In this document: one piece after another, positions 10,042 to 46,487 of the stretch
Numbering within the stretch: the stretch's first letter is position 1
Layout: the number at the start of each line of letters is the position of its first letter
NCBI RefSeq assembly: GCF_058153355.1
Contig: NZ_CM177019.1
Reading direction: 5' to 3' (one strand)
Length of the DNA: 64,000 nt
Program-made: the position numbers and the translations under genes
Notes under the pieces: generated by a model
Database searches by the model: none
What the model was told of the DNA's origin: nothing
The model's input: only the letters and a program-made list of their open reading frames with translations

Positions 10042-10124
10042 TTATTCAGTCGATAGTAACCCGCCCTCCGGGGATAGCAAGCATTTTTTGCAAAAAGGGG
10101 TAGATGCAATCGGTTACGCTCTGT

Positions 10125-21370: not shown

Positions 21371-22008
21371 TTACTCGTCGGCAGCGTAGCCCTGCGGCGG
21401 CAGACGTTGACCATCCAGCCACGCGGCGTTTTCGTGCATTTTCAGACGACCATCGGCAAACCAGCTAATCACCAGTGGATAAATAGCGTGTTCCTGGGTT
21501 TGCACGCGGGCGGTGATGTCATCCTCCGTATCACCAGCAAATACCGGGACTTTCGCCTGTAAAATAACCGGGCCACCGTCCAGTTCATCGGTGACGAAAT
21601 GCACCGATGTACCGTGCTCTTCATCGCCATTTTCCAGCGCCTGACGATGGGTGTGTAATCCGGGATATTTCGGCAGCAGAGAAGGGTGAATATTCAGCAA
21701 ACGCCCGGCATAGTGGGAGACAAACGCCGGGCTGAGAATGCGCATAAAACCAGCCAGCACGACCACATCGGGTGCGTACATGTCGATTTCATGAATCAAC
21801 TCCCGGTCATAGGCTTCACGACTGTCAAACGCGCTGGCGATGAGCGTATGCGTTGCAATACCCGCCTGGCGGGCGCGTTCAAGGCCGAACGCGTCGGCCT
21901 TATTGCTGAAAACTGCCCGTAGGGTGCCTTTAATTTTGTTGGCTTTGCAGGCGTCAATTATTGCCTGCAAATTACTTCCGTTGCCGGAAATAAGCACCAC
22001 AATATTCA

Positions 22009-22009
<1 letters not shown>
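21371..22009 (-). CDS. purN: Phosphoribosylglycinamide formyltransferase 1
   Basis: 212-aa ORF beginning MNIVVLISGNGSNLQAIIDAC; its start overlaps the purM stop. Confidence 0.95.
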
Positions 22010-23064
<1,055 letters not shown>

Positions 23065-23111
23065 TTACTTGCGGTAGAAAAATAAAAATTCGGCGCAATT
23101 CTAACAGGGAA

Positions 23112-23125
23112 AGCAAACGTTTGCG
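23112..23125. promoter_or_regulatory. PurR operator (pur box) in the purMN control region
   Basis: Palindrome AGCAAACGTTTGCG matches the PurR consensus core GCAAACGTTTGC, about 65 bp upstream of the purM start. Confidence 0.65.
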
Positions 23126-23323
23126 AGACTGCTTTACACAACCTTTTTGCACTTCATTTTCCCAAGCGCGCGGCGAAAGAATAGCTGCACCGTGGCAAAG
23201 GAGAGTTTTTGGATGGAATAATATTCTTTCATAACCACATGAATATAAAGTAACTTTATCTAAAACCGTTATCATTTTGACTAAAGTCAACGAAAATAAT
23301 ATTGCCGCCTTGAAGAAAGGAGG

Positions 23324-23345
23324 TATAATCCGTCGATTTTTTTTG
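23324..23345 (+). promoter_or_regulatory. upp promoter -10 (TATAAT) and initially transcribed G-A-T8-G tract (UTP-sensitive reiterative transcription)
   Basis: TATAAT at 23324-23329 is followed by GATTTTTTTTG at 23335-23345, 27 bp before the upp ATG. Confidence 0.65.
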
Positions 23346-23371
23346 TGGCTGCCCCTCAAAGGAGAAAGAGT

Positions 23372-23998
23372 ATGAAGATCGTGGAAGTCAAACACCCACT
23401 CGTCAAACACAAGCTGGGACTGATGCGTGAGCAAGATATCAGCACCAAGCGCTTTCGCGAACTCGCTTCCGAAGTGGGTAGCCTGCTGACTTACGAAGCG
23501 ACCGCCGACCTCGAAACGGAAAAAGTAACTATCGAAGGCTGGAACGGCCCGGTAGAAATCGACCAGATCAAAGGTAAGAAAATTACCGTGGTGCCAATTT
23601 TACGTGCCGGTCTGGGGATGATGGACGGTGTGCTGGAAAACGTTCCGAGCGCGCGCATCAGCGTCGTCGGTATGTACCGTAATGAAGAAACGCTGGAGCC
23701 GGTACCGTACTTCCAGAAACTGGTTTCTAACATCGATGAGCGTATGGCGCTGATCGTTGACCCAATGCTGGCAACCGGTGGTTCCGTTATCGCGACCATC
23801 GACCTGCTGAAAAAAGCGGGCTGCAGCAGCATCAAAGTTCTGGTGCTGGTAGCTGCGCCAGAAGGTATCGCAGCGCTGGAAAAAGCGCACCCGGACGTCG
23901 AACTGTATACTGCATCGATTGACCAGGGACTGAACGAGCACGGATACATTATTCCGGGCCTCGGCGATGCCGGTGACAAAATCTTTGGTACGAAATAA
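23372..23998 (+). CDS. upp: Uracil phosphoribosyltransferase
   Basis: Start placed at the internal ATG ([21 protein letters not shown]) after GGAGAAAG, giving 208 aa. Confidence 0.95.
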
Positions 23999-24083: not shown

Positions 24084-25373
24084 ATGACGCGCCGTGCTAT
24101 CGGGGTGAGTGAAAGACCGCCACTTTTACAAACAATCCCGCTTAGTTTGCAACATTTGTTCGCCATGTTTGGTGCAACCGTCCTGGTGCCCGTCTTATTT
24201 CATATTAACCCGGCGACTGTACTGTTATTCAATGGTATCGGGACGCTGCTGTATCTCTTCATCTGTAAAGGGAAAATCCCGGCTTATCTTGGTTCCAGCT
24301 TTGCCTTTATTTCACCGGTATTGTTACTGTTGCCGTTAGGGTATGAAGTCGCGCTGGGCGGCTTTATTATGTGCGGCGTGCTGTTCTGCCTGGTTTCTTT
24401 TATCGTGAAGAAAGCGGGGACCGGCTGGCTGGACGTGCTGTTTCCACCTGCGGCAATGGGCGCAATCGTTGCCGTCATCGGTCTGGAGTTGGCGGGCGTA
24501 GCTGCCGGTATGGCAGGTTTACTCCCGGCTGAAGGGCAAACGCCAGACTCCAAAACCATCATCATCTCCATTACCACGCTGGCAGTCACGGTTTTAGGTT
24601 CCGTGCTGTTTCGTGGTTTCCTGGCAATTATCCCGATTTTAATTGGCGTGCTGGTGGGCTACGCGCTCTCTTTCGCAATGGGAATTGTCGATACCACGCC
24701 GATTATTAACGCCCACTGGTTTGCGCTGCCAACTCTCTATACGCCGCGCTTCGAGTGGTTTGCCATTCTGACTATTCTGCCAGCGGCGTTAGTGGTTATT
24801 GCCGAACACGTAGGGCACCTGGTAGTAACGGCTAATATCGTCAAAAAAGATCTGCTGCGCGATCCAGGTCTGCACCGTTCGATGTTTGCTAACGGCTTGT
24901 CGACCGTGATCTCCGGCTTCTTTGGCTCTACGCCAAACACCACCTACGGGGAAAACATTGGCGTGATGGCGATCACCCGTGTTTACAGTACCTGGGTTAT
25001 CGGCGGGGCGGCGATTTTCGCTATCCTGCTTTCCTGCGTCGGTAAACTGGCTGCAGCTATCCAGATGATCCCATTGCCGGTGATGGGCGGCGTTTCGCTG
25101 CTGCTTTATGGTGTTATCGGTGCTTCCGGTATTCGTGTTTTGATCGAATCGAAAGTGGATTACAACAAAGCACAGAACCTGATCCTGACTTCTGTCATTT
25201 TGATCATCGGTGTCAGTGGCGCGAAGGTAAACATCGGCGCGGCGGAGCTGAAAGGTATGGCGCTGGCGACCATCGTCGGTATCGGCTTAAGTTTGATCTT
25301 CAAACTGATTAGTGTGCTGCGCCCTGAAGAAGTGGTGCTGGACGCAGAAGACGCGGATATAACAGACAAATAA
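24084..25373 (+). CDS. uraA: Uracil:H+ symporter
   Basis: Start placed at [36 protein letters not shown] after AGAGGA, giving 429 aa. Confidence 0.93.
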
Positions 25374-25467: not shown

Positions 25468-26169
25468 CTGAACACACCGGCACAGCTCTCTTTGCCACTT
25501 TATCTTCCTGACGACGAAACCTTTGCAAGTTTCTGGCCGGGGGATAACTCCTCTTTACTGGCCGCGCTGCAAAACGTGCTGCGTCAGGAACATAGCGGTT
25601 ACATTTATCTCTGGGCACGCGAAGGCGCGGGGCGCAGTCATCTGCTGCACGCGGCTTGCGCGGAATTGTCGCAGCGTGGCGATGCGGTGGGCTATGTCCC
25701 GCTGGATAAACGCACCTGGTTTGTTCCGGAAGTGCTCGACGGTATGGAGCATTTGTCGCTGGTCTGTATCGACAACATTGAGTGTATTGCAGGCGATGAG
25801 TTGTGGGAGATGGCGATTTTCGATCTCTACAATCGAATTCTGGAATCGGGTAAAACACGGTTGTTAATCACCGGCGATCGTCCACCGCGGCAGTTGAATC
25901 TGGGATTACCGGATCTCGCGTCGCGACTCGACTGGGGGCAGATCTACAAATTGCAGCCTCTTTCTGATGAAGATAAGTTGCAGGCGCTACAGTTACGCGC
26001 GCGTTTGCGTGGTTTTGAACTGCCGGAAGATGTGGGGCGTTTCTTGCTGAAGCGGCTCGACAGAGAGATGCGCACGTTATTTATGACGTTGGATCAGTTG
26101 GATCGTGCGTCGATTACCGCGCAACGTAAGCTGACCATTCCGTTTGTGAAAGAAATTCTGAAACTGTAG
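25468..26169 (+). CDS. hda: DnaA-inactivating protein Hda (regulatory inactivation of DnaA)
   Basis: AAA+ fold protein ending ..[11 protein letters not shown]. Start assigned to the CTG at 25468 ([19 protein letters not shown]) by analogy with K-12, giving 233 aa. Confidence 0.8.
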
Positions 26170-28330: not shown

Positions 28331-29392
28331 ATGCTCGAAATGTTGATGCAATGGTATCGCCGCCGTTTTAGCGACCCGGAAGCGATTGCCTTGCTGGTTA
28401 TTTTAGTTGCCGGATTTGGCATTATCTTTTTCTTTAGCGGCCTACTCGCACCGTTGCTGGTGGCGATTGTGCTGGCCTATTTACTGGAATGGCCAACCGT
28501 GCGCCTACAATCAATAGGCTGCTCCCGACGTTGGGCGACATCGATTGTATTGGTCGTTTTCGTCGGTATTTTGCTGCTGATGGCGTTCGTGGTAATGCCT
28601 ATCGCCTGGCAACAGGGCATCTACTTAATCCGTGATATGCCGGGGATGCTCAATAAGCTCTCTGATTTTGCCGCCACGTTGCCGCGCCGCTATCCGGCGT
28701 TAATGGATGCGGGGATTATTGATGCAATGGCCGAAAATATGCGCAGCCGGATGCTCACCATGGGCGATTCGGTGGTGAAAATTTCCCTCGCCTCGCTGGT
28801 CGGTTTGCTGACCATTGCCGTCTATCTGGTGCTGGTGCCATTGATGGTCTTCTTCCTGCTGAAAGACAAAGAGCAAATGTTGAACGCCGTTCGTCGGGTG
28901 CTGCCGCGTAACCGTGGACTGGCAGGACAGGTGTGGAAGGAGATGAATCAACAAATCACCAACTATATCCGCGGCAAAGTGCTGGAGATGATCGTGGTGG
29001 GGATTGCCACCTGGCTGGGATTCTTACTCTTCGGGCTGAACTATTCGCTGCTGCTGGCGGTGCTGGTCGGCTTCTCGGTACTTATTCCGTACATTGGTGC
29101 ATTTGTGGTGACCATTCCGGTGGTTGGCGTGGCGCTATTCCAGTTTGGTGCTGGCACGGAATTCTGGAGCTGCTTCGCGGTGTATCTGATCATTCAGGCG
29201 CTGGACGGCAACCTGTTAGTACCTGTGTTGTTCTCCGAAGCGGTTAACCTGCATCCGCTGGTCATTATTTTATCAGTAGTGATCTTCGGTGGTTTGTGGG
29301 GATTCTGGGGCGTATTCTTCGCCATTCCATTGGCGACGCTGATCAAAGCCGTGATTCACGCCTGGCCCGATGGGCAAATCGCGCAAGAATAA
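28331..29392 (+). CDS. perM: AI-2E-family permease PerM (YfgO)
   Basis: 353-aa polytopic membrane ORF at the K-12 perM position. Confidence 0.85.
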   Translation: MLEMLMQWYRRRFSDPEAIALLVILVAGFGIIFFFSGLLAPLLVAIVLAYLLEWPTVRLQSIGCSRRWATSIVLVVFVGILLLMAFVVMPIAWQQGIYLIRDMPGMLNKLSDFAATLPRRYPALMDAGIIDAMAENMRSRMLTMGDSVVKISLASLVGLLTIAVYLVLVPLMVFFLLKDKEQMLNAVRRVLPRNRGLAGQVWKEMNQQITNYIRGKVLEMIVVGIATWLGFLLFGLNYSLLLAVLVGFSVLIPYIGAFVVTIPVVGVALFQFGAGTEFWSCFAVYLIIQALDGNLLVPVLFSEAVNLHPLVIILSVVIFGGLWGFWGVFFAIPLATLIKAVIHAWPDGQIAQE

Positions 29393-38008: not shown

Positions 38009-39448
38009 TTACTGCAACCAGGTCGCGGCGAATACGCTGGAAATCAGCGACATCACAATCAGTACAATCAACACCAGGCGCATTGATCCTGGCAGCGGTG
38101 CGGCATCGGCGACGGCTTCGCTCGGTTTGCCAGGCACGATGCGACCAAACCAGCGAATAAACCAGGCGAAACTGGCGACCGATTCAATCATCAGCAGAAT
38201 CATGGCGGGCAGCAGGATCCAGTACTCCTCTGACAACGAAAAACCGGCAGCAAACAGTGGGAATTTACTGAAGAAGCCGTTGAACGGCGGCACGCCAGTA
38301 ATCGCCAGCGCGGCCACGCAGAAACCCACGCCAGGCAACGGCAGGGTGTGCAATACGCCACGCAGACGCGGCAACAAGCGCGTGCCGCAGCTGTAACTCA
38401 GCGCACCTGCTACAAGGAAAAACAGGCTTTTAGCGAACGCGTGGTTGACGATGTAGGCGATGCTGCCCTCCAGTGCCAGCCGCGAGCCGAAGATGGAGAG
38501 CGACAAGCCGAAGAACATCCAGCCAAGTTGAGTGATGGTCGACCAGGCCAGCAACCGCTTCATATCCTGCTGCGGCAAATACATCAGGAGGCCGTAAAGA
38601 ATGGTGACCAGTGCCATGACCATGCCAATGCCGCCAATCACATGCGGGATATTGCCGCCGTCGATAATGGCGCGGGCAAAAATGTAAACGCCCACTTTCA
38701 CCATCGATGCGGCGTGGAGATAGGCGCTGATCGGTGTTGGCGCTTCCATTGCATCCGGTAGCCACGCTTGCATCGGTAGCTGGGCCGATTTTCCCCACGC
38801 GGCAAACAGGATGCCGCCATAAACCAGATAACGTGCGTCGCCGTGTAACTCGCTCATCGCGCTAAGCGCAAACGTTCCGGTCTGCAAAAACAGCGTGGCG
38901 GCGGCAAGATACAACCCCAGCGAACCGATATGAGTGATAAGTAACGCTTTTAGTGCTGAACGTTGCGCTTTATCGCTCTGGTAATAACTGATCAACGCCC
39001 AGGAGCAGCCGCCCGTAATTTCAAAAAACAACAACTGACCGAGCAGCGTCGAGGAGAGTACCAGTCCCGCCATCGCGCCGATAAAAACCAGCAAAAATGC
39101 GTAATAACGATTCGTGCCGTTATGCGGGTGTTCGCGATTTTTATCCGTCAGATAACCCGTGGAGTAGATCGTGACCAGCAAACCGAGGAACACCACCACA
39201 AACAGAATCAGCGTACTCACGCGATCAATGACCAGGCCAAACAACGCCACATCCCCCACGTTGACCAACGTCAACGTGACGGCAACTTTATCGGCCTGAT
39301 AAAACGCGGAGATCAGCGACAACATGCACAGCGTGGTCAGCGCGGCGAACAAAATCCCCCATTCGGCGGCCCGACGTTGTGGCGAAAACGAAACGACCAG
39401 TGCGCCGATAAAAGGCAGCAATAACGTCGTCAGAGCAAGATTTTCCAT
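38009..39448 (-). CDS. hyfD: Hydrogenase-4 membrane subunit D (antiporter-like)
   Basis: 479-aa polytopic ORF. Confidence 0.88.
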   Translation of the reverse strand: MENLALTTLLLPFIGALVVSFSPQRRAAEWGILFAALTTLCMLSLISAFYQADKVAVTLTLVNVGDVALFGLVIDRVSTLILFVVVFLGLLVTIYSTGYLTDKNREHPHNGTNRYYAFLLVFIGAMAGLVLSSTLLGQLLFFEITGGCSWALISYYQSDKAQRSALKALLITHIGSLGLYLAAATLFLQTGTFALSAMSELHGDARYLVYGGILFAAWGKSAQLPMQAWLPDAMEAPTPISAYLHAASMVKVGVYIFARAIIDGGNIPHVIGGIGMVMALVTILYGLLMYLPQQDMKRLLAWSTITQLGWMFFGLSLSIFGSRLALEGSIAYIVNHAFAKSLFFLVAGALSYSCGTRLLPRLRGVLHTLPLPGVGFCVAALAITGVPPFNGFFSKFPLFAAGFSLSEEYWILLPAMILLMIESVASFAWFIRWFGRIVPGKPSEAVADAAPLPGSMRLVLIVLIVMSLISSVFAATWLQ

Positions 39449-46471: not shown

Positions 46472-46487
46472 ACGCAAACGTGTGCGT
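46472..46487. promoter_or_regulatory. PurR operator (pur box) upstream of purC
   Basis: ACGCAAACGTGTGCGT is a close match to the consensus ACGCAAACGTTTTCNT. Confidence 0.55.

Follow-up and report, generated by a model that had tools for sequence, protein, structure and literature searches.

PurR, a dimeric repressor of the LacI family, uses hypoxanthine or guanine as corepressor and bends its operator via the minor groove; for the way in which it blocks RNA polymerase, a 2024 review takes purMN as the worked example. As a rule, PurR sites are found between the -35 and -10 elements, where they control initiation (PMC3159470). To judge from the citations given in PMC3266220 and PMC3159470, the purMN operator is credited to He et al. 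(1990) and Meng et al. (1990), the latter naming purMN in its title. A ChIP-chip study of PurR in K-12 lists for purM-purN the motif TCGCAAACGTTTGCTT at 2,619,140-2,619,155 (PMC3159470, Table 1). The corresponding ChIP-chip region spans 2,618,847-2,619,484, and its log2 enrichment was 2.08 with adenine and 0.98 without (PMC3159470). In the same study, adenine repressed all genes of purine biosynthesis in the wild type; the effect was absent once purR had been deleted, and the PurR-repressed units listed include purMN. The purine- and PurR-dependent change in purM expression, on which the initial annotation of the locus studied here had staked its reading, is on record in these data. In a second study, the upp-purMN spacer was cloned on a high-copy plasmid; the PurR site was named as CGCAAACGTTTGCTT and was put "28 nucleotides upstream" of purM (PMC3266220). 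Deletion of AAACGTTTGCTT (pInterD2) led to a weaker protective titration effect of the cloned spacer (PMC3266220).

The purMN operator and its locus

The window analysed here, a stretch of 64,000 nucleotides, comprises the ppk-purN-purM / upp-uraA-hda region of E. coli, with arsC located beyond hda; the arrangement is the same as in K-12 MG1655. The names of purM and upp were taken from the RefSeq annotation of an E. coli chromosome which is 99.8% identical (locus L001). The first gene of the operon is purM (22009-23046, minus strand; ORF list and RefSeq annotation of L001 and K-12), which starts with a GTG at 23046 and encodes the 345 residues of phosphoribosylformylglycinamidine cyclo-ligase. 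The second gene, purN (21371-22009, minus strand; ORF list and RefSeq annotation), encodes phosphoribosylglycinamide formyltransferase (212 residues) and has an overlap of one base with the purM stop. On the plus strand, upp occupies positions 23372-23998 with an ATG at 23372 (ORF list and RefSeq annotation). As had been proposed, the box lies between the two divergent, RefSeq-annotated genes purM and upp, in a spacer of 325 bp. E. coli is a species carrying purR; the gene itself is absent from the 64-kb window. In K-12, purR is located at a distance of about 0.9 Mb from this region, according to the coordinates of PMC3159470.

The initial annotation had placed the PurR operator of purMN at 23112-23125 and had described it as a palindrome, AGCAAACGTTTGCG, which matches the core of the pur box. 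By direct reading, these are exactly the plus-strand letters of the window. The palindrome is perfect for the inner 12 bases, GCAAACGTTTGC, only; the outer A/G pair is not complementary, and a comparison of the 14-mer with the reverse strand gives two mismatches. The operator contains the 14-mer, but its true length is 16 bp: it extends over 23111-23126 on the minus strand, reads TCGCAAACGTTTGCTT in the purM sense, with the central CpG at 23119/23118, and AAGCAAACGTTTGCGA in plus-strand letters. The functional unit at this position is a near-palindrome of 16 bp with imperfect ends. The proposed resemblance to the pur box holds over the complete 16-mer: 14 of the 16 positions agree with the ideal box ACGCAAACGTTTGCGT, the central CG is present, and the box is off-consensus at the outer positions 1 and 15, both of which are T. 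The distance to the purM start codon is 65-80 nt.

The 16-mer of the window is identical, letter for letter, to the purM-purN motif of PMC3159470. It is the known K-12 operator itself, a RegulonDB/EcoCyc site, found in another strain of E. coli, and as such it was already known. Identity to the ChIP-chip motif and to the site deleted in PMC3266220, the matrix score, conservation, and the fixed spacing to the -10 element all support the original assignment, and we regard it as almost certain that 23111-23126 is the operator through which PurR acts on the E. coli purMN operon. Every defining feature of a PurR operator which can be checked by computation is present; for binding and repression in vivo, the evidence comes from published work on the identical sequence.

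Matrix scores and further PurR sites in the window

The scan with a PurR matrix, which had been suggested as a check, was performed with a leave-one-out weight matrix, deduced from the 27 other motif sites listed in Table 1 of PMC3159470; the purMN site was excluded. The purMN box reached 17.24 bits and was the third best site in the window; it was the second best when the matrix was based on classical operators only. The published PurR sites span 12.1-24.9 bits. The score of the purMN box is inside this range, and the box ranks only 21st of 28 because its outer positions are off-consensus. Among 200 dinucleotide-preserving shuffles, values of at least 17.24 bits occurred 0.245 times per window and were observed in 45 of the shuffled windows; therefore, for a window of this size, the matrix score by itself does not decide the matter. 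Multiplying this rate by 325/64000 gives an expectation of about 0.001 inside the purM-upp spacer; by similar arithmetic, about 5e-4 exact copies of any given 14-mer are expected per 64 kb, counting both strands. The strongest evidence for the operator is its conservation together with the experiments on the identical sequence, above the matrix score.

The window contains four of the 35 published PurR-bound regions, and the purMN site is colinear with the three other published sites (guaB, yfgO/yfgC, and purC). The best-scoring site is the purC box ACGCAAACGTGTGCGT (46472-46487), which agrees with the ideal box at 15 of 16 positions, scores 19.6 bits, and is located about 150 nt upstream of purC, just after a TATGAT; Table 1 of PMC3159470 gives the identical sequence as the motif for purC. 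The guaB box (10104-10119, minus strand), GCGTAACCGATTGCAT, scores 16.7 bits, abuts the TATAAT upstream of guaB, and has exactly the sequence of the guaB-guaA motif published in the ChIP study (PMC3159470). The extension of guaB in the ORF list to an ATG inside this box is probably spurious. At 28376-28391, 45 nt inside an ORF which starts at 28331 (yfgO/perM by position), the 16-mer CCGGAAGCGATTGCCT scores 15.6 bits; it is identical to the yfgO/yfgC motif of the ChIP-chip study (PMC3159470).

Three further candidates were rejected. Within uraA, the box-like 16-mer ACGGCAACGATTGCGC (24460-24475, minus strand) scores 17.75 bits, which is above the value of the real purMN operator. A function as a roadblock operator of the purB type was considered and dismissed: the 16-mer encodes the invariant peptide GAIVAV, while the synonymous positions drift freely in 15 species (matrix scores of -2.2 to 18.0), and its distance from the purMN ChIP region is about 1.35 kb, with no separate peak in the table of PMC3159470. 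It looks like a coding by-product. The sites at 25995-26010 (in hda) and 38866-38881 score 13.5-13.9 bits, are lower with the classical-site matrix and absent from the ChIP table; they were treated as chance matches.

Conservation within E. coli and across species

A 601-bp query across the spacer (22900-23500) had matches in 5424 of 5426 complete E. coli genomes with an identity of up to 99.8%; for 5412 genomes, the identity over this region was 95-99%. In 5400 of 5424 complete genomes, the 40-mer with the box at its centre (23099-23138) is the same as in the window. In one variant 40-mer that was inspected, the change is at 23136 and thus outside the box. An alignment of the window with K-12 showed about 24 substitutions, which are clustered in the middle of the spacer, and no differences in the segment that begins 25 nt before the box and includes the -10 region. 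Likewise, the stretch from the box to the -10 element is invariant among the window, K-12, and a third strain.

Two peculiarities of the window were noticed in these comparisons. An identity of at least 99% over 22900-23500 was found for only 13 of 5425 E. coli records, the differences being concentrated mid-spacer; at the purM-upp locus, the window belongs to a minority lineage of E. coli. In addition, five A (read as T in the direction of purM) form the run at 23084-23088 in the 5'UTR of purM, compared to four in K-12 and in the strain of 99.8% identity. This extra base, which is either a one-base indel or a sequencing error, is the sole difference between the leaders of the window and K-12 and is located downstream of the inferred transcription start.

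For a comparison across species, we compiled 80 purM loci, one per species, ranging from Escherichia albertii to Pseudoalteromonas. For each locus, the best matrix score in the 400 nt upstream of purM was determined; the cut-off was 15 bits, and blocks of the same size from the same loci served as controls. Scores of at least 15 bits were reached upstream of purM in 63 of the 80 loci, but in only 6 of 715 control blocks; the median best scores were 17.0 and 4.2 bits, respectively. Each of the 41 Enterobacterales loci has the box, with at least 14.4 bits, and so have most of the purM loci from Pasteurellales, Vibrionales, and Aeromonas. Among the 80 loci, those of Alteromonadales, of the Shewanella type, and of Orbales have no box upstream of purM. 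In an alignment anchored at the box, the information content is close to 2 bits over CGCAAACGTTTGC but almost zero upstream of the box.

The putative purM promoter and the proposed mechanism

The box-anchored alignment also revealed a conserved element downstream of the operator. In 50 of 67 sequences, a gap of exactly 7 nt separates the box from a -10-like hexamer (42 times TAGAAT); the gap usually ends with CTGn, and the information content is raised at the CTG and at the hexamer columns. In Enterobacterales and Pasteurellales, TGnTAGAAT is conserved at this position. The arrangement in the window, given in the purM sense, is TCGCAAACGTTTGCTT-tccCTGT-TAGAAT with the TG at 23106-23105. Guided by this cross-species conservation, we read TGtTAGAAT (23098-23106, minus strand; TGt at 23106-23104, TAGAAT at 23103-23098), which begins within the 7-nt gap that separates operator and hexamer, as the putative extended -10 promoter of purM. 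Transcription would then start at a G/A at 23090-23091 (minus strand), 6-7 nt after the -10 hexamer, and the position of the -10 element would place the operator at about -35 to -20, with its centre at about -27.5.

A scan with the sigma-70 consensus called no promoter on the purM strand; the only call was the upp promoter (23302-23329). The putative purM promoter escapes such a scan because the -35 position is taken by the operator and reads TCGCAA, which has 3 of 6 matches to TTGACA. As the box is 65-80 nt away from the start codon, the "28 nucleotides upstream" of PMC3266220 were taken relative to the transcription start. The predicted centre at about -27.5 agrees with this value and with the general placement of PurR sites (PMC3159470).

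These findings suggest the following mode of action. A PurR dimer carrying hypoxanthine or guanine binds the 16-bp near-palindrome TCGCAAACGTTTGCTT, which occupies the usual place of the -35 hexamer and of the upstream part of the spacer, directly upstream of the putative extended -10 element. Because the operator overlaps the core promoter, bound PurR would block RNA polymerase, presumably by steric exclusion; the transcription of purM-purN is lowered when purines are plentiful.

The spacing differs in some of the loci. In Vibrionaceae (L046, L051, L058, L065-L069, L071, L075-L077; about 1403-1460), the distance between the box and TGnTAGAAT is 16-18 nt, and in Aeromonas (L059, L073; about 1403-1460) it is 23 nt, compared to 7 nt in Enterobacterales; thus, the operator would lie about 1 to 1.5 helical turns further upstream in these species, with the extended -10 element being kept.

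The divergent upp-uraA operon and alternative readings

The upp promoter (23302-23329, plus strand) consists of TTGCCG, a spacer of 16 nt, and TATAAT (23324-23329), with 10 of 12 matches; CCGTCGATTTTTTTTG is found after this promoter (23302-23346). The T-run of this sequence, in the initially transcribed region, is presumably where the known UTP-sensitive choice of the start site and the reiterative transcription at upp take place. Upstream of the upp promoter, TTGACTAAAGTCAA forms a perfect palindrome of 14 bp at 23277-23290. It was described as an FNR site and deleted in PMC3266220; the distance of its centre to the inferred upp start is about 52 nt, while PMC3266220 gives 61.5.

Another target of the box, in place of purMN or besides it, might be the divergent upp-uraA operon. 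We consider this quite unlikely, although adenine lowers the uraA transcript 17.6-fold, the purR deletion mutant shows a 2.04-fold change (PMC3159470), and no conserved PurR box belonging to upp-uraA itself was found. A distance of about 217 nt separates the centre of the box (23118.5) from the upp start region further downstream (about 23335-23336), which puts the box far outside the upp core promoter. It is the spacing to the purM -10 element which is fixed, and the box also exists in species whose purM does not have upp next to it on the upstream side, such as those of the loci L005-L008 and the Pasteurellaceae; the response of uraA may be an indirect one, mediated by nucleotide pools. The operator serves purM and not upp. 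A form of coupling in which PurR at the purMN operator would also affect upp-uraA, for example by altering the local DNA geometry in the 325-bp spacer shared with the FNR site, is unlikely, too; if it existed, it could explain part of the 17.6-fold adenine response and of the 2-fold response of uraA to the purR deletion.

Even less probable is that the site belongs mainly to, or is shared with, another regulator of the LacI family, such as GalR/GalS, CytR, RbsR and the like. The core AANCGNTT is indeed common to LacI-family operators, and the GalR ChIP-chip study reports GalR sites overlapping the PurR operators upstream of purR; however, the list of that study contains no purM site, and GalR sites have outer arms of the type GTG...CAC, with TTAC instead of TTGC. 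The conserved columns CGCAAACGTTTGC fit the PurR motif, for which occupancy was determined directly (PMC3159470).

That the palindrome is a chance match without any regulatory role has a negligible probability: 45 of 200 shuffled windows do reach at least 17.24 bits and the coding by-product in uraA (24460-24475) scores a similar 17.75 bits, but the purMN site is identical to a sequence bound in ChIP-chip (PMC3159470) and functionally deleted (PMC3266220), does not vary among 5400 of 5424 E. coli genomes, in contrast to the adjoining spacer, and is kept in the non-coding DNA of 63 of 80 species at a fixed spacing to the -10 element. An RNA hairpin or terminator was rejected: each of the two transcripts is inferred to start downstream of the palindrome, and the scan detected no terminator-like site.

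Comparison with known PurR operators

The purMN operator is real, conserved, and ordinary, and nothing about it is new. By coupling the expression of purM-purN to the pool of hypoxanthine and guanine, it is a textbook element of the pur regulon; the value of delineating 23111-23126 is a correct annotation only, and no open question is advanced. The example indicates that an initial look at raw sequence can bring a real operator to light. In addition, the purMN box is a clean positive control, as it combines identity to a ChIP-verified site with near-invariance in 5424 genomes and a footprint across orders.

The closest relative is the K-12 purMN operator, which has the identical 16 bp at the corresponding place between purM and upp, an unchanged gene order, and an identical flanking promoter from the box to the purM start. 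The strain of the window differs by the one extra T in the 5'UTR and by the approximately 24 mid-spacer substitutions; from a comparison of the sequences, no functional difference is expected. The operators of purF, purL, purHD, purEK, and purT are likewise 16-bp near-palindromes with a central CpG, which overlap the promoter; their scores are 21.8-24.9 bits, compared to 17.2 bits for the purMN box. The purC operator (46472-46487), which is bound by the same repressor and listed in Table 1 of PMC3159470, is with 15 of 16 positions close to the consensus. It follows just downstream of the -10-like TATGAT and is thus located at or after the transcription start, whereas the purMN operator lies over the -35 region. 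The intragenic operators of purB and purR share protein and motif with the purMN site. They are located inside an ORF and block elongation in the manner of a roadblock (PMC3159470); in contrast, the purMN operator lies upstream of the transcription start and is expected to block initiation.
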